A model generated the notes under the pieces. The model had not been told where the DNA came from. It searched no databases and saw only the letters and a program-made list of their open reading frames with translations. 64,000 nt of DNA, taken from positions 23,562,001 through 23,626,000 of the forward strand of contig OZ249436.1 of NCBI GenBank assembly GCA_965235115.1, read 5' to 3'. This DNA comes from Laetmonice hystrix (taxonomy: Eukaryota). Both the position numbers and the translations under genes were made by a program. This document shows positions 31,702 to 53,686 of the stretch, piece by piece; the first letter of the stretch is position 1; every line of letters begins with the position of its first letter.

Positions 31702-34700
31702 TGTTATACAGTGGTGCCCTCTGGTGTCAATATGTCAATATGTAGGCCCTCTGGTGGTGAGGATGAAAACAAAGGACTAGGCCTGCGCCGATTGGAGCGA
31801 GGCTCGTAAACTAAAGCTTGATGGAAACTAGAACGGTGTCCGTGTTCTCGGAACCCAAATATAACATGGTGGCAGCGGTGAGTCGGCTTCAAGCTCCATG
31901 AATGCGATGCTTTGCCGCTACTCTCGGTCAGCCTACGCATCTACTGCTGCACCGGCTGGGCGAGTGGTTTTTGTTAGCGTGTTGCCGCGGAAAAGACGAA
32001 AAAAAACAAGATGGCTGCGCCGGGCGTGCGGATGCCCATGCTCAGCTGGGAGGCGGAAAGCCAAGTGGGAGCTTATGAGGAATGGAGGGACTTTCTCGAA
32101 AGTTACTTCGAAAAGATGGCATTATATCCTGCTGTCATCAGGCCTCGAAAGGTCGCGAGTTGTGGAATACTTGGGCGCTCACGCAGGAGGACAAGGCAGA
32201 CCCAGGCAGGGTATTCGGGAAATTCAAGGACCACTTAGTAGGGAAGCCCAACAAGTGGGTAATGCGCCTTGAGCTAGCGTCGCTGAAGCAGAGTGAAGGA
32301 GAGCCGCTGGACAATTTTGTGTGCCGTGTCAAGGCCAAAGCCAGTTTGTGTCAGTTCAGTGATGACGTGACCCGTGATGAGACGATTACATTCTAGTTGA
32401 TCAAGGGGATCCTGTGGCCGGAGGAAAGAGCATTCCTTATCTCGAAGGGCAATAACTTGACATTGGATGTTGTCATTAAGTCGGCACAGGAATACCAGGC
32501 AACGCTACGGGACGCATCTAGTTTCAACAATGGCAGTAAAGGTGACAGTGGGGTTGCAGCTTCCGTCAATTCAGTTACACGGGGGCGAAAAGAGACATGT
32601 AGATTCTGCGGTAGGAGGCATCCCCTGCGGAACTGCCCCGCGTATGGTAAGAAATGTGATGCATGTGGGATGTTGAACCATTTTGCTTGTGTGTGTAAAA
32701 GGAAAGGATGGGAAAATAGACAGGGTTCACAAAGGCGGTCAAGCTCTAGACACGGAAGGTCCAAAAGTAGAGATAACCGAGGTAGAGACAACCAAGGTAA
32801 AGATAACCAAGGTAGAGATGACCAAGGTAGAGGTAACCGTGGTGGCAAGAGAAATGTGTATGAATACCAAGCTGATGGTGCTCGTGACTCTGATGTACTG
32901 GATTGTGGCGAGGTTAAAGTGAGCATTGATGACATCCAGGCTGGAGAGAGACAGTCAATTATGGCAAAGTTGAACATTCGTCCGCCAAATGTATCCTGTA
33001 GAGTTACGCTTAGTGTTAAGGCTGACACTGGTGCAAACGGGAGCATTATGCCTGTCCGTTGCCTGAGACAGATGTACGGTGATAAGGGTGAATATGAGTT
33101 AAAACCTAGTAATGTTAAGCTAACTGCAGTGAATGGTACGGTGATACCCCAACTTGGTGTTATTGACATCCCAATACAGTTTGAAAACTCAGAATGGCAA
33201 ATGAACAGGTTCTATGTGTGTGAAATAGAGGGGCCCGCCATATTGTCCTGTGGGGCCACCAAGAAACTGGGTATTATAAAGGTGGCCGAGAGCCAAAACA
33301 TTTCTGTTGTTGGAAGCCAGGGTAATGCAGTGTTGACAACACCTGGTAGCCCCTCCCAAAGCTGTGTTGTGCCTATCCCAAACCAAGGTGCTCTAGAAAA
33401 GGCGTACCCTGAGTGTTTCAGTGGTATTGGATGTATGCCTGGAAAATGTGCGATTGAGCTAAAGGATGGTGCCATAGCTGTTGTTGTACCGCCCCGTAAA
33501 TACCCAATCCAATTGAAAGAGGAAATTTGTAATAAGCTTAAAGAAATGGAAGGTTTGGGGATAATCACAAAATGTCCGGATGATGAAGCATCGGAGTGGG
33601 TAAGTTCGTTGGCGTTTACGCGGAAAACTAACGCGGAAAACGAGTTGCGTATTTGTCTGGATCCGAAACACTTAAACGAGTCGATCAAGCGCACACACCA
33701 CAAAACTCCAACCCTGGAAGAGATCAGCCATAACTTTGCGGGGTCCACCGTATTCTCAAAATTAGATGCGAAACATGGCTACTGGAGCATTGTTCTTGAC
33801 GAGCCGAGCAGTAGGCTGTGCACATTCCACATATGCAACTCCGGTACTTTGATCCGACGCAACCCGCTGAAATTGAAGTTGACTCATCCCTAAAAGGCTT
33901 GGGGGCTGCACTGGTGCAGAATGGAAAGCCGATAGCTTTCGCGTTCAAAGCTCTCACGTCTGCAGAAAGCAGATATGCGAATATCGAGAGAGAGATGTTG
34001 GCAGTGGTGTATGGGCTTGAAAAGTTCCATACATATGTCTTTGGTAAAGTGGTATTCAGTGATCACAAGCCACTAGAGGCGATTCGTTTGAAACAGCTCA
34101 GCCAGGCACCGCCGCGGTTACAGCGCATTCTGTTGCGGATCGAGCCCTACGACATCCAGTTATGTTATCGTCCAGGTAAAGACATGGTCTACGCAGACTA
34201 TCTGTCTCGAATTGCTCCTTCACCGGGCCCTGAGGTCAAGCTAGCAAACCATTCATATGGTCCAAATGTCTGCCACTCAAATGGATAAGGTGCGCCAAGC
34301 TTCAGAGTGTGATTCTGAGCTACAGTCTTTGAGTGAACAGATTGTTCGTGGCTGGCCGGAGCAGGCCAAATCGGTTCCAAAATTTATCCGTGGGTACTGG
34401 ACCATGAGGGATTATTTGTCTGTTGACGATGGTCTCGTGTATTCGGGTGACCGTCTCATCGTGCCAGGATCGCTCCGTCAGGAGTACTTAGAACGTGTCC
34501 ATGCAGGACACCCGGGAATCACAAGGTACCAGCTTCGGGCAAAAGAATGCCTGTATTAGCCTGGCCTGATGGCTGATATTGAGGGAATTGTCAAAGATTG
34601 TGTGACATGTTTGCAGAATGCAAGAAGTAATGTGAAGGAACCAATGCAATCGCATGAGATACCGTCTCAACCGTGGCACACTCTGTCTAGTGATCTGTTT

Positions 34701-35876
34701 GAGCTTGGTGGTCATAAATATGTGGTGTTGGTGGACCATTATAGCAAAATGCCGTTCGTACGCGCGCTGCACACAGAAACGAGTGCAGAAACGATAAAGT
34801 TTTGCCGGGATCTGTTCTCGGTGCATGGTATCCTGAGTCGTATGTACACAGACAACAGCCCGCAGTATGCTTCTGCCGAGTTCCGGAATTTTGCTGTGGC
34901 ATGGGAGTTTGAACATATTACCTCAAGCCCCAGGTATGCCCAGAGCAATGGGGTCATTGAACGTACCGTCGCAACTGTAAAAGCCATGTTAAAAAAAGGC
35001 CCTCCAGTCGAAATCTGACCCGCAATTAGCCCTACTGTGCTGGCGAAGCACACCCTTGGATACCAGGTCCCCCAGTCCTGCAGAACTGTTGTACGGGAGG
35101 AAAATTAGGTCTAACCTACCCACAAAACAGAGTCAGACATTACTTGATCGACAGCACCATAAGAGGTTGCTTAAGAAGGGCAGGCAGTCTGAGGAGCGTT
35201 ATAATGCACATGCTGGATCAGAGCTCCCTGCTCTACGTACAGGGGGAAAAGTGTTAGTTCAGGTGCCTGACAGGTCTGAGTGGTGTCCGGGTACTGTTGA
35301 GAGTCTCTGTGATGAACCGCGTTCATATATGGTTCGTATGTCAGATGGAAGGGTATTGAGGAGAAATAGGAGGTTTCTCAAGGAGATAAGCCCTAGAGCT
35401 TCTGTGAAGTTCACGTTCGACCAAAGGCGTCAAGGCAATGCTACTGTGGAGCAGAGGCCTCAGTTGGTTGGTGTTGAGGGAGACCGGGCTAGGACAGTCA
35501 GGTTTCAGGAAAATGCAGGGATCACTCATGTGAGGCGTGATGAGCCTGTCAACCAGATGTTTAAGTCAAGCCGTAAGGCTAAGAAGCCGGTGAGACTAAT
35601 TGAGCAGTGTGAAGTTAAAGTCAGTTCTTAGAGATGTAGTTTCCTATGTCTAGATGGCATGGGGCATGCGTTTAAAGATACAATTGTGCTATCATTTTTA
35701 TTGTACTGCTATATAGGATTATATAGAAGGTTTTGGTTTGTCGTGTAGGTGGTTAGATTAGAGTATGTAAAATTGCAAAAACAGAACCCAAGAAATACTT
35801 GGAAAATCAATAAGGTTTAGTTGCTTTTATTGTAAGAAGAGGGATGTTATACAGTGGTGCTCTCTGGTGTCAATAT
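31702..35876 (+). mobile_element. Nested Gypsy (Mag-like) LTR retrotransposon, decayed
   Basis: 165-bp 5' LTR TGTTATA...TATAACA (31702-31866); PBS TGGTGGCAGCGG; gag with twin zinc knuckles; protease ADTGA. RT jumps from LCTF to RNase H at ~33830 (YxDD region deleted). Integrase, PPT, and 32 bp of the 3' LTR at 35845. Confidence 0.93.
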
Positions 35877-37829
35877 CTTGAATGCAAATTATTGAAATCG
35901 CCGATAGAAACTTTGAATCATATCTGGCGATATAGGGAACGGGAGGTGATTCACTAAGAATTCTCGCCAAATTTTCTCGCTAAATCAGCAATTTTGCTGG
36001 CGAGACGTCAGAGCACATCCCACCGTCGCCAAACGTGATCAAAATCCTACTTGCATACAGAAACTTTCACTCTTTTACACAGTACCGCGCAGTACCTTAA
36101 TCAAAGATGGTGGAGGGAGGATATGATTCAAAGTTTCTATCGGCGATTTTAATAATTTGCATTCGAGATGTTGCCGGATAATTATCAATTTAGAGAAATT
36201 TTAACTTATTAGTTGTGGCAGTTATATCACTGAAACATTACAATCGCCAGTCGCACTGTAAATTAATTGAAGGTGAAAAAGTCGGTGTGATTAAGGTACC
36301 ACAACGGTCGTGATTAGGTAGCGCAGGAGCAAAAGGGGATTAAGGTACCACAACATATACTGTGATAGGACTTTGAGGTTCTGATTTAAAATATTCGTGC
36401 GATACTTTATATAAATTATCTTTTTGTTTGTTTAATTAATCTAATGATGTCAAAATTATATGCAATTTAGGTTACCAAACACTTCACACTATTTTTAATG
36501 ACAATTTTGATGACCTATATCTTGGATGCGGTACCTTAATCGCTTACTCATGGTACCCTAATCACCCTCATAATTGATGCGGGTGGCACCTTAATCACAC
36601 CCACTTTTTCAACTTGGATTTACGGTGCCACTGGCGATTGTAAAGCTTAAGTGGTATAACCTCCATAATTAATAAGGTAAAATCTCTCTCAGTCGCTACC
36701 CAGACAGCATGGCCAACTGGGCCCCATATGGGTTTTGGCCAGACATGATGGGCTTATCTGGGCTAGGGCTACAGGTGGGCATTCTCAATGGCCCCACTTG
36801 GGGATAGCCCAGTAATTCCCCCCTTTGCAAGTTCTAAGTGGGCTTGAGGTGGGTTGTGTGTGGGCACACACAGCCCAGTACCTCCCTTCTGAGTGGGCTT
36901 TTGTCATACATGTGTGTGGGCTCACGGGTTAGTTCCCCGATTCACGCTTGGGGCCCAGATGGGCCCATAGTGGGTCATCTATTTAAGACCCTCTGAGGGC
37001 CCAGATGGGGCCTTACTGGGTTAGCCCAGTTGGGGCCCAGTTGGTGTCCATAGTGGGTCATCTATTTGGGACCCTCTGAGGCCCAAATGGGGCCTTGCTG
37101 GGTTAGCCCAGTTGGGGCCCAGTTGGCGTCCAGTTGGCGCCATAGCAGGCGCTAGGTGGCGCTGTTATCAGTGAGATTGACTAGACTGTCCGAAACACAG
37201 TCTAGGTGAACTTCTAACGACTTCAAGTAATTCGCACGTTATACAAGAACAGCTATTCATTGTGTAAAATTACGCTTTATTTTTTCGTTGATTGTGAAAA
37301 AAAACAAGATAGGGACGTAGAGATGATATTTTTTTTTAACAACCCAATATAGAAAACACCAATTTGAATTTACGACGGCGCCCGCGGACAAATTTAGCGG
37401 GGCCCCAGCTGGGTAGCCCATTTGGGGCCCAGTTGGTCGTCGTCCTGGCGCCCAGTTGGGGCCCAGCTGGGAATGTTGTCTGGGTAATTATAAGGAAGCG
37501 TCTCGGCTGATATTAACAGAAATCGCTCATAGAAACTTTGAATTGTAACCTAACCTGTGCCATCTTTGATTAAGGTACTGCGAGGTACCTTAATCGGCGT
37601 AAGCACAGTGATTTTGACGTCAGTGTTTGTCACGCACAACGAGGCTCTGTGGCAGCGAGGACTTTTAGGCAAGCGACAATGACACAATAGATACATAATT
37701 GTGAAGTTAGCTGGCGACGGTGGCGACGGTGTTAGTGAAACGGTCTGAAGGAATCATCAACATCGCCAGATTTGGCGAGAATTATATTCCCCAAAATTAG
37801 CGATCGCCAATCTTGCTGAAACGGGCCCC
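35877..37829. mobile_element. Foldback-type DNA element remnant with several internal inverted repeats
   Basis: IR pairs 35876-35925/36120-36169 and ~36190-36265/36620-36690; ATTAAGGTAC motifs; right terminus TTGCTGAAACGGGCCCC. Confidence 0.55.
36699..37484. mobile_element. CCC...GGG-ended, TA-flanked MITE (EnSpm/CACTA-like) rich in GGGCCC
   Basis: TA|CCCAGACAGCAT ... ATGTTGTCTGGG|TA. Confidence 0.75.
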
Positions 37830-38925
37830 AGACGTGTCTCACTCAGTTCCAGATGTTCTCCCCACTTTGACTAGGGAACAGCTCATTCGGGAGCAACGAA
37901 ATGATGTTGAGATTGCTACTCTTATTGACAAGGCGTTGTCTGAGGAAGAGGCTGCCGAGGTGTCGGTTTGCTATTATTTGGCGGCGGGTCTTTTGATGCG
38001 AAAGTGGAGGCTGCCAGAGGTCGCTGTGAACGAAGAATGGCATGTTTGCTCTCAGGTTGTGTTACCGCCTACTTGTAGGCCAGATGTTATGAAGTTGGCT
38101 GATGATTGTTCCATTGCTGGTCATCGTGGTGTTAATAAGACATGTGACAAGAATCTGCGTCACTTCTTTTGGCCAGGACTTAGATCTTCAGTGTCGGCGT
38201 TTGTCAAGTCATGCGACACTTGTCAAACTGTAGGGAAGCCAAACCAGTCTATTCCCTGAGCTCCCCTCAAACCCATTCCAGCGTTCCAGGAACCCTTTAC
38301 CCATGTGTTGATTGATTGTGTTGGTCACTTGCCCAAGAGTCGTGCAGGTAACCAGTATATTTTGACAGTGATGTGCATGTCATCCTGGTTCCCTGAAGCC
38401 ATTCCCCTGTAGGATATTTCTGCCAATAAGGTTTTCCAGGCTCTGGTAAAGTTCTTCACCCTAGTTGGACTTCCCAACACCCTCCAGTCAGACCAAGGAT
38501 CCAATTTTATGTCTCATGTTTTTCAGCAGGTTATGTATTGATCAAAGGAAATCCAGCGCTTATCATCCCCAGTCTCAAGGTGCAATAGAGAGGTTTCACC
38601 AGTCTATGAAGTTCATGCTGAAAACCTATTGTCATGAAAATGATCATGATTGGGATGAGGGCCTACCCCTTGTGTTGTTTGCTACTAGAGAAGCTGTATC
38701 GGATTCACTTGGTTTCAGTCCATTTGAGCTTGTATTTGGCCACACGGTACGTGGTCCATTGAAATGTTTGAAGGAGAAGTTATTGTCCCCTCAGCCGTCC
38801 ACCAGTTTGGTTGAGTATGTGTCGTCCTTCAGGGACAGATTGTATTTGGCCCGTGAGTATGCTAAGGCTCACCTAGAATCATATCAGGAGCAGATGAAAG
38901 TGTTTTATGATAGGACGTCTCGTAA

Positions 38926-39082
38926 GGGGCCGTTCAAAAGTTACGTAACGCTCGGGGGGTGGGGGGGGGGGTGTATGTCCAAACGTTACGGACAGTGCTG
39001 AAGTACCATTGCAGAGCGTTACGGGGTGGGGGGGGGGTCAGATTTGGCCCAAAATAGCGTTACGTAATTTTTGAACGGCCCC
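38926..39082. mobile_element. 157-bp Harbinger/Tourist-like MITE in the integrase C-terminus
   Basis: TAA|GGGGCCGTTCAAAA ... TTTTGAACGGCCCC|TAA; removal restores DRTSRKRSFQPGDQV. Confidence 0.9.
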
Positions 39083-41184
39083 TAAACGTTCCTTTCAGCC
39101 TGGTGATCAAGTGTTGCACTTGACTCAAAGGAAACCTTTGCAGGTCCGATTTCAAGGTCCCTATGTCCCGACGGCGGATAGGTGAGGTGGATTATGTTGT
39201 TTTGACCCCTGACGGGCGCAAGCAGCGCTGACTTAAATTTGTCATGTAAATCTACTAAAGGCTTATCATCCCCGCAACCAGCTGGCAAAAGGTCAGTCTG
39301 CTGCAGTTGCTACTGTGGTGGCCAGTAAACCTCCTCCCAGTGATGATTTCTTAGAGGGTCACCCTAGTTTCAAATTGAGGAATTCGGAAATTTTGCAGGA
39401 TTTGGATAGTCGTCTAGCCCATCTCACTCCCTCTCAGCTAAGTGAGCTGAAGGCTTTATTGTTTGAATATGCCCAGTTGTTTTCCGACGTCCCAGATCGA
39501 CCAGTCTTCTTCAACATGATGTTGATGTGGGTGATGCTACTCCAATAAAACAGCATCCTTATCGGGTCCATCCCGAAAAACAAAAGAAGATGTCAGCTGA
39601 AATCAGTTATTTGTTGGAACATGATTTGATTGAACCAAGTTCCAGTTCCTGGAGTTCTCCCTATGCTGGAGAAATTTCTGCTTTTGTCACCCCAGATGGT
39701 TTATTTAACTACAAGGTTATGGCGTTTGGTATGCGTAATGGTCCAGCCATGTTCCAACGTCTTATGAATTGGTTGATGATGTGTTAGCTAGTGGCGCCGC
39801 CTGGCGTGATCATTTGGATCGGTTGCGTGCTTTGTTTGAACATTTGCCTGAGGCTAACTTGATTGTCAATCTTGCAAAATGTGAGTTTGCCCAGGCTACT
39901 GTCACGTTCTTAGGTCATGTTGTTGGTCAGGGTAAAGTCCTTGCCCTCAAGGCTAAGGTCAAGGCTCTTGAGAAGTTCCCTCCTCCTGATGGGAAGAAAG
40001 CCCTACAGAGGTTTTTAGGTATGGCAGGCTTCCACCGAAAGTTCTGTTGCAATTTTTAACGGTGGTTGCCCCACTCACTCATCTGTTGAAGAAAAGTGTG
40101 AAGTTTGTGTGGAGTGAACGCAGTCAAGCGGCGTTTTATCGGGTCAAGGCCATGTTGTCACTATCATTCTCCAGTTCTGGCCGCCCCCAATTTCACAAAA
40201 CCCTTTATTATTGCTGTCGATCGCGACAGTTGCGACGTTGGCACTGGATCTGTGTTAATGCAGCAAGATTATTCTGGTATCGACCACGCCATAAAAAGTT
40301 TAACGAGATTTAAAGAAATTACTCCACTGTGGAGAAAGAAGCATTAGGATTAATCCTAGCATTACAACATTTTGAGGTGTATGTTAGTAGCTCGTCTACC
40401 CCCGTAATGGTCTATACAGACCATAACCCCCTCACCTTTGTACACAAGATGCGTACAAAAGACCAAAGGTTGTTAAGGTGGAGTCTGGCCCTTCCGGCCT
40501 ATAACATTGAAATCAAACACATCAAAGGTACTCAAATGTGGTAGCAGTCGCACTGTCGCGTCAACCTATTGATTAAAATGTATGAAGTTGGATTAGGTTG
40601 TGATGCAGCTCAATGCTGAGTTAAAAGGTGTATATAATATGTGTCATTTAAACTTGAGTTAGGCCGAGCCATACAAATAAACAGGCAACTGACCTCACAA
40701 ATTACTTACCTTGAACAACAATCGATGCAGCAAGAAGCTTACCTAAGGCGTCAGAACATAATCATTGAAGGAGTTCCTGAAAGACCTGGTGAAGACACAT
40801 CACAAAGGATATACCATCTTCTAGCAGACACAATGGAATTGCCCTTTCAGCAAGCAGATAAGGACAAGTGTCATCGATTTGGTCGCTCGGTTAATGACAA
40901 ACCAAACCCATAATTCTACGCTGTCTCTCGCAATCTGTCAGGGATAAAGTGTTATCAGCAGCACATAAATGTCCAGCGAAACCAGATGGAGTTTTCTTTA
41001 ACGAAGACCTCCCGGCAACACTGAAAAAAAGACGGCCAAACACGCAGAAGCCTGTGGGGCTACAGTCAAACTTTCGAGCGACTGGCTCACCATAAACGGT
41101 ATGAACTATAACTTCAAGTCTCTCTCAATGCTTCCACAAAACCTTAGCCTCTCAGCTGCACGCACAAAGCACGTTGGCAACTGT

Positions 41185-43223
41185 ATAAGGTTTTATTCTA
41201 AATTCTCTTACTTGTGTAATTTCTACAAATCGGATCTTGACGTGGACGGATCGCTTTACCCGACAATGGAACATTATTTCCAGTCTGAGAAGTGTCGTGC
41301 AGCAGGGAGGGATTACCTTGTTCATGAGATCGGGACAACTGGGGACTGTTTGACTGTAAAAAGGCTAGGAGACCCAGTAAACTCCCGTGACTGGCAGACT
41401 CAGAAATATCTCATCATGAAGAAAGGCCCTACTGCGAAGTTCACCCAGAATGACTGTTTAAAGCGTAGCCTCAGTGATTTCTTTAAAACTCGCCTTGTTG
41501 TTACTATGTCAAAGATTTATGTTTCAAAAATCATAATCCGAACGCTCGTATCTGTGGACTGCATTGTTATTTGTGTCAGACCACTGTATAATAGAGGGCC
41601 TACTTCTGCCAGTTCTGGCTGGGGATGCCTAGAAACGAGAGTCGTGACGACACAACAGGAACACGTCGGGCTAGGCCTAGGCGTAGAGAGGCATTGTCCG
41701 CCACAGCAAAGCAGATTTTACGCGTGCTTGTGAATAATCTATTTTCTTCTGATAAAACTCAAAGTCAGCTATAATGATAAACAAGCTGCCACAGGCTTCG
41801 GAAAAACTTAGGTCTTAGGGTGGAATTATTCTGTAACTTTTGCCCAAGCAAGTGCACAGTCCGAAGCTGGCCTATCCTTAGGCTTAGCCTGAATCTGACT
41901 GGTACAGTGGTAGTGTTAGTAGTACTAGACTTACTCTAGACTAGTTGACAGTGGAAGCACGTCATCACTCGGACTAGTCTAGAGAAATGTGGGCAGCACG
42001 GACATTGAGGTTTTTGAAGAGTAATTTCAGTAAATATTAAAAAAGAAGAAGAAAATGATGCTGTCCCGCCCCGCCTATATAGAGTCTAGATGTGATTGAA
42101 CGAGAAGCTTTGACAGAACGTCGATCAGCCTACCGGCACTGCAGCCCGGTTGGCCGTCAGTAGCAAGGCCGTGCATAGCGTGGCTTTCGCTAGGCCTACA
42201 TCGGAGAGGGGTCTAGGAAAGCCGAGGCCTAGATCTATACAGAAACATTTATATGTTTCGGACAATTCGAATAAAATTTACTAGATATTAAGCGGTATTT
42301 GTTTACTAGTGTGGAGTTTTAATCCGGTACGTAGGCCTAGGCTGTGGTGTTTAGGAGTGTTTTTACTTTTGACTTTTTGTTTCGTGGGGTTTCGAATTGG
42401 CGTGTTGCGACCTGCAACAAAACATAGCCGGGATAAAGCTTAGGGCCACCTGGGCCAGTTAAATTTTTGATCGGTTTCATGCACTGACCTTATAGATGAG
42501 AGGATACACGGCTTCTGTATAATGATTATAACCAGTATAAGCAAGGGGAGCTCAAGACTCGACACAAGCACTGTCCCACTGTCACTCAGTTTACTGTTGG
42601 AGTCGCCATTGCGTGTGTCAGTGCTGCACTCCCGCACTGATAAAAATTCAGGCTGCAGCCTGCCGTAGCCTCCGTAGGCCTATTTATTTCCAATGGAAGT
42701 CAACATTCATCAATTTTCAGTTGAGAACATCCGTCTCCTCACTAAAAACGGGACCTAACTCACTATACTTATCACTTTCTCGACTGGCTGTGTGCCAGGC
42801 GATAGGCTTATAATGGACGGTGGTCTGTGACAGTTCAGTGGGCGAGTTCCTGTTGTGACGTTATGGGCCATGACATCCACCAGATGGCGTTTCAGTCGAG
42901 GCCCTGTCACTTTTGCTTGGTTACGGTTGAAAATGCAGTGTCACACGGAAACGCAATTAAATAAAATATTGAAAATTGCCACAAAAATAGTACATGCTCT
43001 CAGGATTGGAGCACAATTATAACTAGAACGACTGAGGCCTGTCTTTAAAGAATAAACTGTTAATGACAGGTACTTAATGACTGCAATGTTGGTTGAATGC
43101 ACGAATAACAGGTACTAAGGTGGGGCCTGTATACTCTCCTCTGAGGAACTGAGACCCCAACCTTTTGCAGGTCATAACAAGCTTGGCAAACTGCTAATGG
43201 AAATCAGACAGGACCTAAAATAA
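41185..43223 (+). pseudogene. NADAR (YbiA-like) domain at the end of LINE ORF1, split by an insertion
   Basis: FYSKFSYLCNFY...YPTMEHYFQSEK...VKRLG...W...IMKKG..AKFTQN..LK joined to NKLLMTG..LVEC...GHNKLGKLLMEIRQDLK*. Confidence 0.88.
41462..43044. mobile_element. Kolobok-like non-autonomous DNA transposon
   Basis: TTAA TSD on both sides (41458-41461, 43045-43048); AG....GCCTCAGT imperfect TIRs; removal restores the host reading frame. Confidence 0.8.
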
Positions 43224-46046
43224 GATATTTACTTGTATCACTGTGCTCCCAAACTCGGTTGACCTTGGCCTAAAGTCAGGTTGTGTGATTGTTTGTGTAC
43301 ACCCAGTTTTTGACCAGGTCAACAGTAGCAGGTCCACTTGAAATCTTGCCCTCCGTCGGTTGACCACACTGCGCCCGTCAACCTCAAGACCTGTATTATG
43401 TTAATGATTTGGTATCGCATGTTCTGTTTATTAGTATGTTGAATTCATTGTTGCAACACTTCGGGTTGCCGAATTATTGGTCAAATGTCCTTTGGACACC
43501 GTGACCCACAATTCCTTCATTATTGAGTTAGTTTGTTATCTGTCAGCTTGTTACAAACATGTCATTCAGTGTTGTTGTGTCCAATTGAACAAGTCAGTTA
43601 TAGGAATTCCTTCTGTGGAAATTCATTCCTTGTATTTAAGTTCTCTTCCGAGTGTAGCACTCCGTACTTATATATATTGTATGTGTCATATTATAATTGT
43701 CTCCTCAGTGGTGTTTCTATAGTTTCTGGTAAATATTCAACCTTTAAGTACAGATCGAAAACAGAAATGTTAAACAACAACTGACCTGAATCACCTTTAG
43801 ACACAACATGGCAATACTACTTTGAGTATATACTATAGAACAATAGGTATAACACTCACATCTCTTGCTGTATACATATGTTTCAATTTTTGCACTTTCC
43901 CGTTTGCACTATGCTGTTAGATGAGAAAAGGATTTGATATGCCTCGATATTATGTAACTCTGGTTGGTAATTAAAACCAACTCTGTATAGCCGATATCAG
44001 CCAGAATAAAGAACTTAAACAACAACAAATGTGTTTTTCTTAAAGGTGCTATTCGTGAACAAAAATTCAATTTTTTTATTTTTAATTTTGTTGACGTTTA
44101 TGTGATCCCACCTATCATGGAAATAGATTCACAACAAAAGAAATCAAAATTTTTCATGGATAACGGCACAAATGGGGCTCTCTCAGAAGGCCTGTGGAGA
44201 CCCTGACACGCCTCACCATAGGAAATGGCTCTATCTCGGTGCGCACCGAGATAGATTTCAAATGCTGCACACAAACTAATAGAAGGTTTATCAGGCCAAT
44301 GGTATCGGTAGGAATTTTTTCTAGTACTATGTGCACAATGTATGATAGGAGAAATGCCATTCTGTGCGAGACGAATAGCACCTTTAACAAATATGATGTA
44401 ATAATACAACTATCTGACATTTATCTTGAAATGCAAATGCTTTCCATTAATAGGACGAACTCAAAGAAAATTATCTTGATAAACTGTTAGAGGCCACCCA
44501 ATGGTGACCCCAAAAATTGCTATTCATAATATTAAAACACAACTGAAACTAGTTAATAATCTAGATCGTTGCGAATTAATTATATTGGGAGATTTGAATA
44601 TTAATTATTCTGATTCTGACGCATATAAGTTGTTAGTATTGCTTGAGGAGGAATTCACTTTAAAACAAGTAACACAGACAGATACAAGGATACATAAAAA
44701 CAGTAGTACATGTACCTTGATTGACGTTATCTTTACTAATGTTAAAAATATTTTCGCGGCAGGATGTATAGAATACTAGCGCCGATGTGGCCAAGGCCAA
44801 CATCTTATATCCCATCCCCCATAAATGAACAATGAGAGGCCCATTATGATGTTAGATGTGTCTTTACATTATCGATATTGGTGTTAATCGAAAATCGCTG
44901 TCACCTAATATAAGGTTTCAATAGTAACCATAGCTCTATCTGGCCACGTTTCAGAGTTATAGCTGTTTAAATAATATTGGTGATCTATCAATGACGTCAT
45001 TATGACGTAATACGTCTACCTATGTCATCAGTATTACTGTCAATCGAAGGAGCATTTATGACTTTCTATATGACCTCAATAGTAACCATAGCTCTATCTC
45101 ACTTAGTTTCAGAGTTACAGCAATGTGTATCTGCAATAGTCAATTTTAACAACTTCAAGGTCACGTAGTTCTGCTAAAATAGGTCAAATTGTTTATTAGT
45201 GAAGTTTTCCAGTAAAGCTGCCCACAGGAAGCCTGTCATCTAAAAATTGTCAGATGTTCTCCAAAAATGGTGGAGCAGTAGCGATTTCGCCACTTTGGAG
45301 CATGTGACCTACTTTTACATGACGTCAGAGGATATAGGTCAAAATAATGGACATAAGTAAGCAGGGTCTATGCAGGATTATTATTCTATGAAAAGTTTTA
45401 GGAAACGATGGAATATGGTTTGAAGAAATGCCTCTAAGTTTAAAATACAAATTACGTCATGACGTCATGAGGTGACGTCATATGGCGTAATAATTATATG
45501 GGTCGATCTTCTCTACCCTGGTGAATGTCCCTGCCAAGATTCATTTGGATATCTCTATAAATGACTGAGATAGCGTATCTATGATGTCATTATGACGTAA
45601 TACGTCACCCTACGTCATCGGTATATGTGTCAATTGAAAGAGCATCTATGACTTCCTATACGACTTCAATAGTAACCATGGCTCTATCTCGCTTTATTTT
45701 AGAGTTACAGCAATGTGCATCTGCAATAGTGAATTTTAACAACTTCAAGGTCACGTGGTTCTGCCAAATTAGGTCAGATCGCTTATTGGTGAGGTTTTCC
45801 AGTAAAGCTGGCTAGAGAGAGCCTGTCAACCCAAAATTGTCAGATTTTATCTAAAAATGGCGGAGCAGTAGCGGTTTGGCCACTTTCGGACGTGTGACCT
45901 ACTTTTTCATGACATCAAAGGTCAAAATCATGAGGATTACTAAAAAGGGTCAATGCCCGATTATTAGGCTATGAAAGGTTTTGGGAAACTATGGGATATA
46001 GCTTCAGGAAATGCCTATAAGTCTGAAATGCAAAATACGTCATGAC

Positions 46047-48120
46047 GATTTTTCAAATTCGAGGAAAATGGGTCAAGTTTTCCATCTTAACCCCAATGGC
46101 AAAAACCAGACGTTGATATCTTTAACTGTTTTAGAGATATCACTGATTTTTTGTTGAAAATGACCTAAAAGGGCCAACTTTGAGGGGCCATAACATGAAA
46201 ACTATTGATTTTAGGGGAGCCATCTCGGTGTCAGAGACAGCTGACCCATTACCCAATCCAATGGTGTTAAAATCAAAAATTAGGTCAACTTGGCCGCCAT
46301 CTTGGATTTTTCAAATTCGAGGAAAATGGGTCAAGTTTTCCATCCGAACCCCAATGGCGAAAACCAGACGTTGATATCTTTAACCGTTTGAGAGATATCA
46401 ATGATTTTTGGTTGAAAATGACCTAAAAGGGTCAACTTTGAGGGGCCATAACATGAAAACTATTGATTTTAGGGGAGCCATCTCGGTGTCAGAGACCGCT
46501 GACCCATTACCCAATGCAATGGTGTTAAAATCAGAAATTAGGTCAAATTGGCCGCCATCTTGGATTTTTCAAATTCGAGGAAAATGGGTCAAGTTTTCCA
46601 TCTTAACCCCAATGGCGAAAACCAGACGTTGATAAATTTAACCGTTTGAGAGATATCAATGATTTTTGGTTGAAAATGACCTAAAAGGGTCAACTTTGAG
46701 GGGCCATAACATGAAAACTATTGATTTTAGGGGAGCCATCTCGGTGTCAGAGACAGCTGACCCATTACCCAATGCAATGGTGTTAAAATCAAAAACTAGG
46801 TCAACTTGGCCGCCATCTTGGATTTTTCAAATCCGAGGAAAATAGGTCAAGTTTTCCATCCGAACCTCAATGGCGAAAACCAGACGTTGATATCTTTAAC
46901 CGTTTTAGAGATATCAATGATTTTAGGTTGAAAATGACCTAAAAGGGCCAACTTTGAGGGGCCATAACATGAAAACTATTGATTTTAGGGGAGCCATCTC
47001 GGTGTCAGAGACAGCTGACCCATTACCCAATCCAATGGTGTTAAAATAAAAAATTAGGTCAACTTGGCCGCCATCTTGGATTTTTCAAATTCGAGGAAAA
47101 TGGGTCAAGTTTTCCATCTTAACCCCAATGGCAAAAACCAGACGTTGATATCTTTAACCGTTTGAGAGATATCAATGATTTTTGGTTGAAAATGACCTAA
47201 AAGGGTCAACTTTGAGGGGCCATAACATGAAAACTATTGATTTTAGGGGAGCCATCTCGGTGTCAGAGACAGCTGACCCATTACCCAATGCAATGGTGTT
47301 AAAATCAGAAATTAGGTCAACTTGGCCGCCATCTTGGATTTTTCAAATTCGAGGAAAATGGGTCATGTTTTCCATCCTAACCCCAATGGCGAAAACCAGA
47401 CGTTGATATCTTTAATCGTTTTAGAGATATCAATGATTTTAGGTTGAAAATGACCTAAAAGGGCCAACTTTGAGGGGCCATAACATGGAAACTATTGATT
47501 TTAGGGGAGCCATCTCGGTGTCAGAGACAGCTGACCCATTACCCAATCCAATGGTGTTAAAATCAAAAATTAGGTCAACTTGGCCGCCATCTTGGATTTT
47601 TCAAATTCGAGGAAAATGGGTCAAGTTTTCCATCTTAACCCCAATGGCGAAAACCAGACGTTGATATCTTTAACCGTTTGAGAGATATCAATGATTTTTG
47701 GTTGAAAATGACCTAAAAGGGTCAACTTTGAGGGGCCATAACATAAAAACTATTGATTTTAGGGGAGCCACCTCGGTGTCAGAGACAGCTGACCCATTAC
47801 CCAATGCAATGGTGTTAAAATCAGAAATTAGGTCAAATTGGCCGCCATCTTGGATTTTTTAAATTCAGGTCAAATGGGTCAAGTTTTTCATCCAAAACCC
47901 AATGGTGAAAACCAGACAATAATATCTTTAACCGTTTTCGAGATATCAATGTTTTTTGGTTGAAAATGACCTAAAAGGGCCAACTTTGAGGGGCCATAAC
48001 ATGGAAACTATTGAATTTAGGGGAGCCATCTCGGTGTCAGACACAGTTGACCTATTCCCCAAACCAATGGTGCTGAAATCGAAAATTAGGTCAACTTGGC
48101 CAACATCTTGGATTTTTCCA
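46047..48120. repeat. 258-bp satellite-like array, 8 units
   Basis: Units start at 46047, 46305, 46563 ... 47853. Confidence 0.95.
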
Positions 48121-50094
48121 ATTTGCGTCATACATGCATAATTATCGAAAAATGACGGACCTAAATTTATCAATTTAACATTGAATTCGATAGAAAATAT
48201 CAGCCACCAGATGTCCTGACTGTTCGCAGTTAGATATGAGCAAGTTAAAAAGGCATTGCTTCTGACACTGGTTGAAAGAGACTATAGCCTGTGCCAGAAC
48301 TCTCCATTCCATATACTACTCACACAATTTTGTTTCAAAGTTGCAAAATTTCGAAAGTTTAAGGTGACGTATCTAGGTCAAATTAGGTCATAGCCCTTAT
48401 CCTTTGATGTTTCATGTAAAGCTCCCCCTAGAGACACAGTCTGCTAAAAATTATGAAACTTTCACAAAAACTGAGGAAGGAGATAGGATTTAAGCATTTT
48501 TCGAACTATGACCTACTTTTTAATTAGGTCAAAGGTCAATGGTCAAAATAATTAGAAAAAGTAGAGGGGTGTATTGGTCAATTACTGTGGTATGAAACGT
48601 TTCTAGAAACTCTTATGCATGACCTCAAAAATTGAGTTTTTTGCAAAAGGAAAATTACGTCATGACGTCATGACGTGACGTCATATGACGTCATCCTTCC
48701 ACAGGTCCATTCTCTCTACCACTGTGAATGTGCCTACCAAGTTTCATTAGGATATCTTTATAAATGACTGAGATACACGTGCAAAGCCAACATCTACAAC
48801 ACCGGGAATAATAATAATAATAACTAGCGCCGATGTGGCCAAGGCCAACATCTTATATCCCATCCCCCATAAATGAACAATGAGAGGCCCATTATGATGT
48901 TAGATGTGTCTTTACATTATCGATGTTGGTGTTAATCGAAAATCGCTGTCACCTAATATAAGGTTTCAATAGTAACCATAGCTCTATCTGGCCACGTTTC
49001 AGAGTTATAGCTGTTTAAATAATATTGGTGATCTATCAATGACGTCATTATGACGTAATACGTCTACCTACGTCATCAGTATTACTGTCAATCGAAGGAG
49101 CATCTATGACTTTCTATATGACCTCAATAGTAACCATAGCTCTATCTCACTTAGTTTCAGAGTTACAGCAATGTGTATCTGCAATAGTCAATTTTAACAA
49201 CTTCAAGGTCACGTAGTTCTGCTAAAATAGGTCAAATTGCTTATTGGTGAAGTTTTCCAGTAAAGCTGCCCACAGGAAGCCTGTCATCTAAAAATTGTCA
49301 GATTTTTTCCAAAAATGGTGGAGCAGTAGCGATTTCGCCACTTTGCAGCATGTGACCTACTTTTACATGACGTCAGAGGATATAGGTCAAAATAATGGAC
49401 ATAAGTAAGCAGGGTCTATGCAGAAACATTATTCTATGAAAAGTTTTAGGAAACGATGAAATATGGTTTGAAGAAATGCCTCTAAGTTTAAAATACAAAT
49501 TACGTCATGACGTCATGAGGTGACGTCATATGACGTAATAATTATATGGGTCGATTTTCTCTACCCTGGTGAATGTCCCTGCCAAGATTCATTTGGATAT
49601 CTCTATAAATGACTGAGATAGCGTATCTATGATGTCATTATGACGTAATACGTCACCCTACGTCATCGGTATATGTGTCAATTGAGAGAGCATCTATGAC
49701 TTCCTATACGACTTCAATAGTAACCGTGGCTCTATCTCGCTTTATTTTAGAGTTACAGCAATGTGCATCTGCAATAGTGAATTTTAACAACTTCAAGGTC
49801 ACGTGGTTCTGCCGAATTAGGTCAGATCGCTTATTGGTGAGGTTTTCCCGTAAAGCTGGCTAGAGAGAGCCTGTCAACCCAAAATTGTCAGATTTTATCT
49901 AAAAATGGCGGAGCAGTAGCGGTTTGGCCACTTTCGGACGTGTGACCTACTTTTTCATGACATCAAAGGTCAAAATCATGAGGATTACTAAAAAGGGTCA
50001 ATGCCCGATTATTAGGCTATGAAAGGTTTTGGGAAACTATGGATTATAGCTTCAAGAAATGCCTATAAGTCTGAAATGCAAAATACGTCATGAC

Positions 50095-51652
50095 GATTTT
50101 TCAAATTCGAGGAAAATGGGTCAAGTTTTCCATCTTAACCCCAATGGCGAAAACCAGACGTTGATATCTTTAACTGTTTTAGAGATATCACTGATTTTTT
50201 GTTGAAAATGACCTAAAAGGGCCAACTTTGAGGGGCCATAACATGAAAACTATTGATTTTAGGGGAGCCATCTCGGTGTCAGAGACAGCTGACCCATTAC
50301 CCAATCCAATGGTGTTAAAATAAAAAATTAGGTCAACTTGGCCGCCATCTTGGATTTTTCAAATTCGAGGAAAATGGGTCAAGTTTTCCATCTTAACCCC
50401 AATGGCGAAAACCAGACGTTGATATCTTTAACTGTTTTAGAGATATCACTGATTTTTGGTTGAAAATGACCTAAAAGGGCCAACTTTGAGGGGCCATAAC
50501 ATGAAAACTATTGATTTTAGGGGAGCCATCTCGGTGTCAGAGACAGCTGACCCATTACCCAATGCAATGGTGTTAAAATCAGAAATTAGGTCAAATTGGC
50601 CGCCATCTTGGATTTTTCAAATTCAGGTCAAATGGGTCAAGTTTTTCATCCAAAACCCAATGGTGAAAACCAGACATTAATATCTTTAACCGTTTTCGAG
50701 ATATCACTGATTTATTGTTGAAAATGACCTAAAAGGGCCAACTTTGAGGGGCGATAACATGAAAACTATTGATTTTAGGGGAGCCATCTCGGTGTCAGAG
50801 ACAGCTGACCCATTACCCAATCCAATGGTGTTAAAATAAAAAATTAGGTCAACTTGGCCGCCATCTTGGATTTTTCAAATTCGAGGAAAATGGGTCATGT
50901 TTTCCATCCTAACCCCAATGGCGAAAACCAGACGTTGATATCTTTAACCGTTTTAGAGATATCAATGATTTTAGGTTGAAAATGACCTAAAAGGGCCAAC
51001 TTTGAGGGGCCATAACATGGAAACTATTGATTTTAGGGGAGCCATCTCGGTGTCAGAGACAGCTGACCCATTACCCAATGCAATGGTGTTAAAATCAGAA
51101 ATTAGGTCAAATTGGCCGCCATCTTGGATTTTTCAAATTCGAGGAAAATGGGTCAAGTTTTCCATCTTAACCCCAATGGCGAAAACCAGACGTTGATATC
51201 TTTAACCGTTTGAGAGATATCAATGATTTTTGGTTGAAAATGACCTAAAAGGGTCAACTTTGAGGGGCCATAACATAAAAACTATTGATTTTAGGGGAGC
51301 CACCTCGGTGTCAGAGACAGCTGACCCATTACCCAATGCAATGGTGTTAAAATCAGAAATTAGGTCAAATTGGCCGCCATCTTGGATTTTTTAAATTCAG
51401 GTCAAATGGGTCAAGTTTTTCATCCAAAACCCAATGGTGAAAACCAGACATTAATATCTTTAACCGTTTTCGAGATATCAATGTTTTTTGGTTGAAAATG
51501 ACCTAAAAGGGCCAACTTTGAGGGGCCATAACATGGAAACTATTGAATTTAGGGGAGCCATCTCGGTGTCAGACACAGTTGACCTATTCCCCAAACCAAT
51601 GGTGCTGAAATCGAAAATTAGGTCAACTTGGCCAACATCTTGGATTTTTCCA
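50095..51652. repeat. 258-bp satellite-like array, 6 units
   Basis: Same monomer; offset between bodies drops from 4048 to 3532 bp (two units fewer). Confidence 0.95.
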
Positions 51653-52625
51653 ATTTGCGTCATACATGCATAATTATCGAAAAATGACGGACCTAAATTT
51701 ATCAATTTAACATTGAATTCGATAGAAAATATCAGCCACCAGATGTCCTGACTGTTCGCAGTTAGATATGAGCAAGTTAAAAAGGCATTGCTTCTGACAC
51801 TGGTTGAAAGAGACTATAGCCTGTGCCAGAACTCTCCATTCCATATACTACTCACACAATTTTGTTTCAAAGTTGCAAAATTTCGAAAGTTTAAGGTGAC
51901 GTATCTAGGTCAAATTAGGTCATAGCCCTTATCCTTTGATGTTTCATGTAAAGCTCCCCCTAGAGACACAGTCTGCTAAAAATTATGAAACTTTCACAAA
52001 AACTGAGGAAGGAGATAGGATTTAAGCATTTTTCGAACTATGACCTACTTTTTAATTAGGTCAAAGGTCAATGGTCAAAATAATTAGAAAAAGTAGAGGG
52101 GTGTATTGGTCAATTACTGTGGTATGAAACGTTTCTAGAAACTCTTATGCATGACCTCAAAAATTGAGTTTTTTGCAAAAGGAAAATTACGTCATGACGT
52201 CATGACGTGACGTCATATGACGTCATCCTTCTACAGGTCCATTCTCTCTACCACTGTGAATGTGCCTACCAAGTTTCATTAGGATATCTTTATAAATGAC
52301 TGAGATACACGTGCAAAGCCAACATCTACAACACCGGGAATAATAATAATAATAATAATACAGAAGACGAAACCATACAATTTTAAAATCCCATCCCCCA
52401 TGGGGGGGATGGGATAATAATACAGAAGACGAAACCATACAATTTTAAAATCCCATCCCCCATGGGGGGGATGGGATAATAATGTAAGTGACCATTTACC
52501 TATATATATTATCAAAAAAAGAAAACATATTAAGAGAGGGAAAGAAAATATTTATTGTAGAACTTATAAACATTACAAAAAAAAATTATTTCAGGAACAA
52601 CTGAGAAATCTGGATTGGACTACTC

Positions 52626-53686
52626 GGAGACTATTACTCAAAAAATGTAGAGTATGCCAAGCTATCTCGGGATACCACGAGTGCAACAGTCATAGAATTT
52701 CTAAAAGAACAGTTCGCCAGGTATGGCATCCCGGAGCAATTCATATCAGATGGTGGGGCCCAATACGACTCAAAAGAATTCAACACATTTGCAACCAACT
52801 ATGGTTTTACACACATCAAGTCATCACCAGAATACCCATAAAGCAACGGATTTGCTGAGAGTCAAGAGAAAATCCTCAAAAACATCATGAAAAAGGCTAA
52901 ACACTCTCACCCAGACGTACACTTGAATGGCGGAACACACCAATAGAAGGGCTAGGCTCACCAGCCCAAGTCCTACATAGCAGACGCTTAAGAGCCAAAC
53001 ACAACTTGAAACCGAAACCTGTGATGGTTAACTTGTCGGATGTATTGGAACAAAAAGCACAACAGAAGCTAAACTATGACAGGAACGCCTTGCACAAGGA
53101 AAGAAAGGATCTCCAAGTCGGCGAAAAGGTGCGAATGAGAACCACAGCTGGTTGGATCCCGGCCAACGTGACACAGGTCGGACCCAACCCGCGTTCATAT
53201 CTTGTGAAGAAAGGCAATAGGACATATCGGCGCAACAGAAGAGATATACTCTCAACCAATACACCACCAAATCGCATAGTAGTTGCTGAAGACTATGATG
53301 GCAACGATACAAACCAACAACAACCCCAGAATGAGAACCTTGACAACAGACCCCAACCAGAAGTGTTGCATACCAAACAGCATGACAGAAATCACACAGA
53401 GCCCTACCAAAACCAAAACAGGTTCAGTGTTAAAAGGTACACTAGAAGCGGTCGAGAAGTGAAACCCCCTCATGGGTTTAAATAAACCTCTATGGTTACT
53501 GGTAACATAGCTTAGGGTAGAAAACACACGACACTGATTTTCTTCAATATAGAGTTTAATTAAAACGGTTTATGTAACTAGTCTAGTTAAGAATCCCTAT
53601 TTAAAGGAAGGAGATGTAACAGGAAGTGTTTAGTATAGTGAGACCTGAATAAAAAAAATAGCAGTAACTACAATATGGCGTACGAG
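52626..53686 (+). mobile_element. 3' fragment of a third Gypsy element (integrase, PPT, short LTR, PBS-like motif)
   Basis: DYYSK, FARYGIPEQFISDGGAQY, SNGFAES, PRSY...YRRNRR, TRSGREVKPP; AAAGGAAGGAGA|TGTAAC...ACTACA then TGGCGTACGAG. Confidence 0.85.

Follow-up and report, generated by a model that had tools for sequence, protein, structure and literature searches.

Does a NADAR domain that is read in frame from the ORF1 of a decayed LINE belong to the element, and if so, what might it do there? The window, the whole stretch of 64,000 nucleotides that was analysed, contains a LINE remnant on the plus strand, in which an L1-type ORF1 (coiled coil, RRM and CTD) has a NADAR domain at its C-terminal end. 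As the original prediction held, this domain is split by an insert.

The decayed LINE copy in the window

The first part of ORF1 (positions 40648 to 41035) comprises the end of the coiled coil and the RRM, is truncated at its 5' end, and aligns by tblastn to the sister ORF1 L012 at 85-91% identity in two frames. Likeness to the sister begins at ~40648 (blastn) rather than at the proposed start of 40577, so that only the end of the predicted coiled coil is retained and most of it is missing. Two frameshifts, at ~40905 and 41020-41035, lie upstream of the CTD, and the reading frame is unbroken only from the CTD into the NADAR domain; the in-frame fusion read from the window holds for this junction, not for the part upstream. 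The CTD and linker (41020 to 41199), in frame with the NADAR domain after the second frameshift, are assigned by the family-model match to L1 ORF1p, which covers residues 85-273. The N-terminal two thirds of the NADAR domain (41200 to 41461), with the first catalytic Glu at 41269-41271 and the Lys at 41290-41292, were placed by a residue map and a Pfam PF08719 match at 41002-41463 (E 1.6e-13; 51.7 bits against a cut-off of 35.1; profile positions 9-107). The C-terminal third (43045 to 43223) contains the second catalytic Glu at 43095-43097 and the ORF1 stop at 43221-43223, together with two predicted lesions that comparison with a sister bears out: an 8-bp insertion at ~43075-43082 and a TAA at 43116-43118 in place of a conserved Trp (TGG in the sister). 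Reading through this stop gives a second PF08719 match at 43083-43220, below the cut-off (E 4e-4; profile positions 118-163). The RRM pieces of the window ORF1 have no Pfam ORF1-family match, and the L1-type assignment is based on the family profile and structure model instead.

The insert (41462 to 43044, no strand assigned) is a 1583-bp non-coding dispersed DNA repeat with AG...CT ends and short imperfect inverted repeats, which we take to be Kolobok-like. It has 47 genome matches, 90-98% identical excluding the self match, as counted from 40 scored of 241 candidates. Sister copies lack it: L002 and L012/13 were continuous across the 41463/43044 junction, and the empty-site joint was also present in DNA-run contigs (two of three runs, one sample). 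TTAA copies bound the insert at 41458-61 and 43045-48 as predicted; because seven bases, TTTAAAG, are duplicated around it, its exact ends are not fixed by the window site alone.

Downstream, the spacer between ORF1 and ORF2 (43224 to 43732, plus strand) is followed by fragments of ORF2, and sister L002 is 84% alike over 43044-43732. A middle piece of the APE endonuclease (44389 to 44776, plus strand), frameshifted and missing its first ~98 residues, is 81-83% identical to sister ORF2 by tblastn and matches PF14529 below the cut-off (E 0.003). Past a 7.7-kb interruption, a C-terminal APE piece (52479 to 52636, its start approximate at ~52480; plus strand; tblastn and blastn to sisters) marks the end of the element. 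These APE pieces are all that is left of ORF2, and no RT match was found within the 64-kb window. Compared with its sister, the window copy has a dN of 0.064 and a dS of 0.084, i.e. near-neutral drift.

The NADAR LINE family and its ORF2

The source genome as a whole has 741 NADAR candidates. Reading of 36 NADAR loci revealed an RRM-CTD directly upstream of the domain in 35 and an APE endonuclease within 2 kb in 30, which speaks against a chance juxtaposition. Both ORFs are open in 13 of 20 long loci, and some LINE copies are 99.9% alike. All six intact ORF1s match PF08719 at 98-125 bits, their RRM parts having no Pfam ORF1-family match, and all six intact ORF2s carry APE and RVT_1. The 3' ends are poly(A) or (ATT)n in 3/3 copy pairs. 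These are APE-type non-LTR elements, as shown by an APE-RT ORF2 that follows ORF1, by their dispersal and by the 3' tail. The family is large, diverse and still spreading, with intact young copies whose existence removes the need for a consensus. In the database, 146 clusters among the best 150 carry the fusion as well. For 32 of 150 RRM-CTD matches, no NADAR lies alongside among the NADAR matches listed. The fusion of NADAR to ORF1 is thus real and family-wide, of which we are practically certain.

L1/Tx1 elements have an ORF2 with a C-terminal CCHC knuckle. The ORF2 of the CR1 group (CR1, L2, Crack, Daphne, Kiri, Rex1) is an APE-RT protein of ~1000 aa with a GVPQGS-LGP motif and neither a C-terminal knuckle nor RNase H, and these features are all seen in the NADAR LINEs of the genome. 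Their ORF2 scored 58-69 bits against human L1 ORF2p, compared to 344 bits for an L1-type neighbour used as control, and a C-terminal CCHC pattern after the RT was found in 0 of 15 ORF2s, some of them truncated; membership of the L1/Tx1 group was rejected on these two grounds. Judged by these sequence features, ORF2 is of the CR1/L2 group, with no clade assigned within it, which supports in the intact copies the CR1/L2-like ORF2 originally proposed from the window.

The combination of coiled coil, RRM and CTD with an ORF2 of the CR1/L2 group is shared with the type II (L1-like, transposase-22) ORF1 of CR1/L2 lineages (PMC4120745), which also include esterase and PHD types of ORF1. NADAR is absent from the ORF1 domains in Table 1 of that paper and unmentioned in a 2026 CR1-group survey; it adds an enzyme class beside esterase among the CR1/L2 ORF1 types. 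ORF1 exchange between lineages is common to the PMC4120745 elements and the NADAR LINEs: in one subfamily, ORF1 was exchanged for a different, likewise NADAR-bearing ORF1. For L040, a tree test of such a swap gave no significant result (p-AU 0.144), and the claim of a swap does not rest on it. The kind of fusion, which the original prediction considered possibly unreported, is already in print: the passages of PMC12477816 on these elements describe a YbiA-family NADAR in ORF1 of Tx1 LINEs of the oyster Crassostrea gigas, and a NADAR in Gypsy Pol of Ectocarpus. Its passages on oyster Tx1 contain no residue, selection or copy analysis, and the source-genome ORF2 differs in falling outside the L1/Tx1 group. 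What is added here is the LINE group, the scale, the selection and the ORF1 swap, the gain lying in scale and testability.

Structure, residues and selection of the NADAR domain

The predicted ORF1 structure has a pLDDT of 89 and a long helix at residues 47-128. It resembles L1 ORF1p (PDB 2YKP) with a Z-score of 12.2 over 182 residues, and the family ORF1 profile matches 2YKP/2YKO at E 1.7e-9. Profile and model together indicate a type II (L1-like) ORF1 with a coiled coil, one RRM and a CTD. ORF1 proteins of the L1 type form trimers that coat the RNA of their own element; by homology, the present ORF1 would likewise be an RNA-coating trimer.

Structural comparison showed that the NADAR domain of the model has the fold of Phytophthora nicotianae NADAR (PDB 8BAU; Z 20.3, rmsd 2.2 over 160 residues) and Escherichia coli YbiA (PDB 2B3W; Z 17.3). 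The equivalents of E43, K50, E125, W89 and W133 are kept; in contrast to both proteins, the LINE domain is fused to ORF1 and has R79 and R93 mostly replaced. It shares with 8BAU a long loop after the WG motif, which YbiA lacks. Residues were surveyed, in 8BAU numbering, across 131 ORF1s, seven from the source genome and 124 from elsewhere; the latter are known from ORF1 proteins alone, and the ORF2 grouping covers the source genome only. The catalytic E43 is present in 131/131 and E125 in 130/131, the latter also being Glu in all 16 source-genome sequences, and position 50 is Lys or Arg in 124. In the pyrophosphate-binding set (R79, W89, R93, D130, W133), the two Trp and D130 are mostly kept (W89 in 127, W133 in 125, D130 in 108 of 131; Asn replaces D130 in the window subfamily) and both Arg are mostly replaced: position 79 is Arg or Lys in 41/131 (Asp in 45) and in 1/16 from the source genome, position 93 in 18/131 and 11/16, respectively.

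ORF1 proteins that share E43 and E125 are only 23-35% identical, and the spacing from CTD to NADAR is 28-29 residues in 117/131. NADAR pairs have a dN of 0.15-0.39, with dS saturated in five of eight pairs and 1.8-5.1 in the others; omega is ~0.06 for NADAR, 0.04 for RRM and 0.09 for CTD. By these rates, the NADAR domain is under purifying selection across families. None of the three observations named beforehand as counting against the fusion was made: a PF08719 match above the cut-off is present on the window piece, the sister copies share the fusion, and both catalytic residues and selection are retained.

The Glu in the last strand (E125), rather than Asp or His, assigns the LINE domain to the YbiA (Glu) type. 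DarT1-associated NADAR antitoxins (BC4488) have the same fold, but their catalytic residue at this position is Asp and they are paired with a DarT1; the Glu rules out membership for the LINE NADARs, for which no partner was found. The source genome also encodes a Gypsy polyprotein with a NADAR before the RT, like the Ectocarpus case in the portion of PMC12477816 that treats it. It differs from that account in the position of the domain between protease and RT, His at the second catalytic position, an animal-type genome and the presence of NADAR LINEs alongside; none of 77 candidates was a long relative. A quick NADAR tree of 67 rows (15 own LINE, 34 of 146 other ORF1, 11 non-element, six phage and one Gypsy) split off the short-loop YbiA-like proteins (SH-aLRT 99) and placed the Gypsy domain within the ORF1 NADARs, a position that has no starred support, with phage rows intermixed; no donor could be named from it. 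For the database homologues, the taxon in the Atlas is Annelida, from one and three members only.

Proposed function and its alternatives

Glu-type NADARs release ADP-ribose that is linked to guanine N2 or cytidine, on RNA as well as DNA. Cleavage of G-ADP-ribose on RNA (PMC11833690) and of G/C-ADP-ribose, by a sponge enzyme among others (PMC12945103), is documented, and invertebrate RNA viruses carry NADARs within polyproteins (PMC9503650). Neither the N1-guanine ADP-ribose made by PARP15 (bioRxiv 10.64898/2026.03.31.715305) nor phosphate-end marks (PMC11833690) are cut, and the known animal PARP marks are therefore not NADAR substrates; whether animals have reversible base ADP-ribosylation of the kind that NADARs erase is an open question (PMC12945103). 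In-vitro NADAR activity is often a poor predictor of the cellular target (PMC11125620).

We consider the LINE NADAR probably catalytically active. Many ORF1 copies would carry an N-glycosyl hydrolase onto element RNA, where it would free that RNA, or new cDNA, of ADP-ribose linked to bases or of some similar adduct. Such marks would obstruct translation or reverse transcription, and their writer would be a host defence enzyme or a microbial toxin. A hydrolase acting on nucleic acid is favoured by the retention of NADAR after the ORF1 swap, the kept catalytic Glu, the selection and the fixed spacing. Against it stand the mostly replaced R79 and R93, the Asn for D130 in the window subfamily, the PARP marks that NADARs leave uncut and the ordinary numbers of PARP and Macro pieces in the genome. 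We give about an even chance to base-linked ADP-ribose, on the RNA or cDNA of the element itself, as the substrate; de-ADP-ribosylation borne by the RNP and countering the host would be plausible.

An active enzyme might instead cleave another N-glycosidic bond, in a soluble ADP-ribose-derived signal, a NAD-derived or damaged nucleotide, or an RNA-processing adduct, and thereby aid RNA maturation or dampen an innate signal. The natural targets of stand-alone NADARs are not known, soluble ADP-ribose derivatives are among those proposed, and RNA processing is suggested in a passage of PMC12477816; retention of both catalytic Glu with altered phosphate clamps fits as well. We regard this as a serious though lesser possibility, in that the RNA-coating fusion partner and fixed spacing fit a nucleic-acid substrate and all tested Glu-type NADARs act on base-ADP-ribose. 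The replaced R79 and R93, and the His at the second position of the Gypsy copy, could also suggest a module that binds ADP-ribose or RNA without turnover, e.g. guiding the RNP to nicks where chromatin is ADP-ribosylated, or offering an extra RNA-binding surface. However, a pure binder would not need the near-invariant E43 and E125 at such low identity, loss of the phosphate clamp would lower binding rather than catalysis, and His at the second position is normal in active phage NADARs, which makes this reading rather improbable.

The domain might also benefit the host: it would shield the nucleic acids of the germ line against bacterial toxins that ADP-ribosylate G or C, and carrier elements would be tolerated. 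NADARs of sponges, corals and sea cucumbers have been proposed to protect in this manner (PMC12945103). We think a host benefit unlikely here, given that the elements which carry the domain are selfish, dispersed, still copying and of many families, so that they are selected for success in copying, and that a domesticated single-copy form was not identified. The dead, near-neutral window copy would suit a one-off juxtaposition or a functionless decayed passenger, but the recurrence of the fusion across loci and database clusters and the low omega leave this a negligible chance.

Returning to de-ADP-ribosylation on the element's own nucleic acid, we tentatively suggest that invertebrate germ lines may mark and restrict retroelement RNA or cDNA by an undescribed guanine-N2 or cytidine ADP-ribosyltransferase, and that retrotransposons with no relation to each other (LINEs of CR1/L2 and Tx1 type, Gypsy) may have captured NADAR erasers and traded NADAR-ORF1 cassettes between families as interchangeable modules of counter-defence, much as phages counter DarTG1. 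The retention of an eraser with intact catalytic residues by a selfish element, in many families and under strong selection, is an indirect sign that such marks matter to the element, and its naturally intact copies are ready reagents for hunting mark and writer. Many animal 'NADAR genes' may be retrotransposon ORF1s. Searches for Scabin-like (PF22596) and DarT (PF14487) writers gave no matches in the genome, and none in 14 control genomes either, so that absence is not shown; PARP (14 exon matches) and Macro (five) pieces occur in ordinary numbers.

NADAR domain and decay of the window LINE

The assembly containing the window is eukaryotic and spans 627 Mb in 35 contigs. The LINE sits among nested, broken mobile elements, with Ty3/Gypsy pol pieces upstream (window 32397-35631 and 37801-40575), a further piece on the other side (52901-53485) and tandem repeats downstream. 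The NADAR domain originally predicted in its ORF1 was borne out by two Pfam matches, an N-terminal piece at 41002-41463 (E 1.6e-13, profile 9-107, above the cut-off) and a C-terminal piece at 43083-43220 (E 4e-4, profile 118-163, below the cut-off), which jointly span the profile. The 1.58-kb insert separating them (41462-43044) is not present in the sister copies L002 and L012/13; it is a dispersed repeat, with 47 genome matches from the best 40 of 241 candidates, and the empty junction was seen in contigs from two of three DNA runs of one sample. The two smaller lesions proposed were also confirmed against L002, which is without the 8-bp insertion and reads TGG where the window has the stop codon TAA in place of the conserved Trp. 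In this closest sister, part of the NADAR region is also present a second time, at 2539-2793, about 1 kb away.

The LINE was originally placed from 40577, but its likeness starts at about 40648. The predicted ORF1 architecture stood, but with two frameshifts before the CTD. An ORF2 does follow, but only its APE is left, in two pieces (44389-44776 and about 52480-52636); no RT was found in the window. The 7.7-kb interruption between them (44776-52478) is built from a roughly 4-kb unit in duplicate and holds an eight-copy tandem array of 258 bp (46047-48152) and 590-bp repeats rich in TGACGTCA. Like the 1.58-kb insert, a 340-bp element with inverted ends (44044-44383) is bounded by AG...CT and flanked by TTAA copies. 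It has a 97% copy in another locus, L018, and very high contig depth; we take it to be a Kolobok-like MITE. Compared with a sister, the window copy shows dN of 0.064 and dS of 0.084, almost neutral drift; as predicted, it is dead.

Family architecture, fold and ORF2 class

A CTD-NADAR search of the genome gave matches for all of the best 150 of 513 candidates (28-87% identity, the window itself excepted), many of which lie in open reading frames 430-480 codons long, and the best 150 of 741 candidates for PF08719 were all above the cut-off. We read 36 distinct loci, 29 from the CTD-NADAR search and seven more, picked non-randomly by likeness to the window. RRM-CTD lies directly upstream of NADAR in 35 of them and APE at most 2 kb away, within the stretch fetched, in 30, which agrees with the suggested position of NADAR between ORF1 and APE-RT. 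Conversely, a NADAR match directly follows at least 118 of 150 RRM-CTD matches. Among 20 long loci, one fetched off-centre, an RT frame is found downstream in 19, and both ORF1 and an ORF2 of 975-1060 aa are open in 13. Dispersed copies are 99.4-99.9% alike across about 5 kb, with poly(A) or (ATT)n ends in all three pairs, so some families were copied recently; identity among 16 ORF1s of the L. hystrix genome is 31-72%. In a library of 1.84 billion proteins, RRM-CTD with a NADAR behind it at the C-terminus is the arrangement in 146 of the 150 best clusters (50% identity level), and two Atlas clusters, of one and three members, point to annelids. The NADAR-bearing ORF1 is a real feature.

Full-length copies start with AAACATGGCGG or AAGATGGCGGC (L032:510, L033:528, L039:630, L040:476), which resemble a YY1 site, as might be expected of an internal promoter. 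Frames of unusual length (1049, 573 and 557 aa) hold RRM-CTD matches at G000:C8:8809950 (minus strand), C2:45420327, C8:12313158 and C5:32914626 and are possibly further ORF1 architectures. Database proteins P0053, P0056, P0111 and P0131 have three to seven tandem NADAR domains each and no RRM-CTD match.

A profile of 26 ORF1s matches human L1 ORF1p (E 1.7e-9) and two solved NADARs (E about 1e-31). In a structural model for one intact ORF1 (pLDDT 89), residues 270-432 align with the Phytophthora nicotianae NADAR (8BAU) with a Z of 20.3 and an rmsd of 2.2, and residues 85-273 with L1 ORF1p (Z 12.2); the model aligns with YbiA at a Z of 17.3. The CTD-NADAR spacing of 28-29 residues in 117 of 131 ORF1s suggests tight packing of the two domains. 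The family ORF2 carries APE and RT. Its match to human L1 ORF2p reaches 58-69 bits, compared with 344 bits for an L1-type neighbour, and a CCHC pattern sought after the RT was not found, which together rule out L1/Tx1 membership. By the general criteria for these groups, it presumably belongs to the CR1/L2 group. NADAR ORF1s occur on two well-separated RT clades (100/100).

The NADAR-ORF1 fusion in kind is already noted in print. PMC12477816, alone found to combine NADAR with a transposable element, reports in the portion available a NADAR of the YbiA family both in the Gypsy Pol of Ectocarpus and in the ORF1 of several Tx1 families from oyster, and proposes a role in RNA processing; the oyster families share the ORF1 position, whereas the present family lies outside L1/Tx1. 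DUF1768 with a retrotransposon gave no report in the searchable literature (which did not extend to subscription papers, Repbase Reports or bioRxiv supplements), NADAR is not in Table 1 of the partly available ORF1 survey PMC4120745, and neither PMC13343379 nor the DAM-LTR preprint uses the word. The architecture is thus not unreported, as had been thought possible, but CR1/L2-group carriers were not found in searchable print, nor were the family scale, the residue and selection evidence, an ORF1 swap, or the co-occurrence of NADARs in LINEs and Gypsy elements of one genome.

Catalytic residues, selection and possible function

Residues named for 8BAU in the available part of PMC11543638 were mapped, with an inferred offset of 2, onto 131 ORF1s, most of which share 23-35% identity with the reference. 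E43 is present in all 131 and E125 in 130, with K50 as K/R in 124, W89 in 127, W133 in 125 and D130 in 108. The R79 position holds a basic residue in only 41 (45 have D) and the R93 position in 18; judged from sequence, these replacements would count against an enzyme. Between families, NADAR dN is 0.15-0.39, the lowest of three domains compared in six of eight pairs, with dS saturated in five pairs and 1.8-5.1 in the other three. The codon-model omega, proposed as a check on the domain, is about 0.06 for NADAR, 0.04 for RRM, 0.09 for CTD and 0.07 for the coiled coil, values that are rough because dS is saturated.

ORF1p would carry NADAR as an active hydrolase on the element's RNA, and the domain would strip base-linked ADP-ribose from that RNA or its cDNA; we rank this reading first, at about even odds. 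In the accessible text of the cited papers, NADARs reverse G-ADP-ribose on RNA and leave phosphate ends untouched (PMC11833690), Glu-type NADARs, including one from a sponge, also reverse C-ADP-ribose with the Glu essential (PMC12945103), and NADARs occur within polyproteins of invertebrate RNA viruses (PMC9503650). The same kind of partial source reports that N1-guanine marks made by PARP15 are not cut by NADAR (bioRxiv 10.64898/2026.03.31.715305) and that cellular targets are narrower than those in vitro (PMC11125620). The writer of the marks is the weak link: the genome search for Scabin-like and DarT families was blank and uninformative, 14 control genomes being blank too, and PARP and Macro pieces are few. 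That base-ADP-ribosylation forms an undescribed defence against retroelements is a doubtful, if live, proposal.

Action on another N-glycosidic substrate, which would equally employ the retained glutamates, is unlikely but deserves attention. Binding without catalysis, to be set beside both the lost arginines and the near-invariant E43 and E125, is less probable still, and a benefit to the host rather than the element is a long shot. A chance joining of NADAR to ORF1 is scarcely credible beside the 35 of 36 loci with the same domain order.

A probable ORF1 exchange and a NADAR in a Gypsy polyprotein

In eight copies, likeness to element L040 (90-96%) sets in at the spacer, and its ORF1 has no DNA match in them; the RTs listed for these copies share 92-98% identity. 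In seven of the eight, their own NADAR, among the matches listed, ends 277 bases upstream of the breakpoint. Sharp spacer breakpoints joining the same ORF2 lineage to a different NADAR ORF1 lie at L040:2315 and G000:C11:16141410, C11:16148986, C1:52553849, C30:9289091, C18:12304870, C18:12379464 and C19:24666658. From these coordinates we infer a putative swap in the L040 lineage, one NADAR-bearing ORF1 replaced by another.

The same genome encodes a 1660-aa Ty3/Gypsy polyprotein (L051:15-4997; G000:C1:23019300-23024500) with protease, NADAR, RT, RNase H and integrase in one frame, the NADAR (E 1e-29) lying between protease and RT. Ectocarpus Gypsy Pol likewise contains NADAR, according to the part of PMC12477816 available. 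In the Gypsy domain, as in phage NADARs, the second catalytic position is occupied by His. A NADAR tree places this domain among ORF1 NADARs without high support and with phage rows mixed in; its best matches are ORF1 NADARs, within a comparison set that had itself been selected by an ORF1 profile. At G000:C8:28856722, a 1649-aa frame with a NADAR match of its own is a second candidate Gypsy case.
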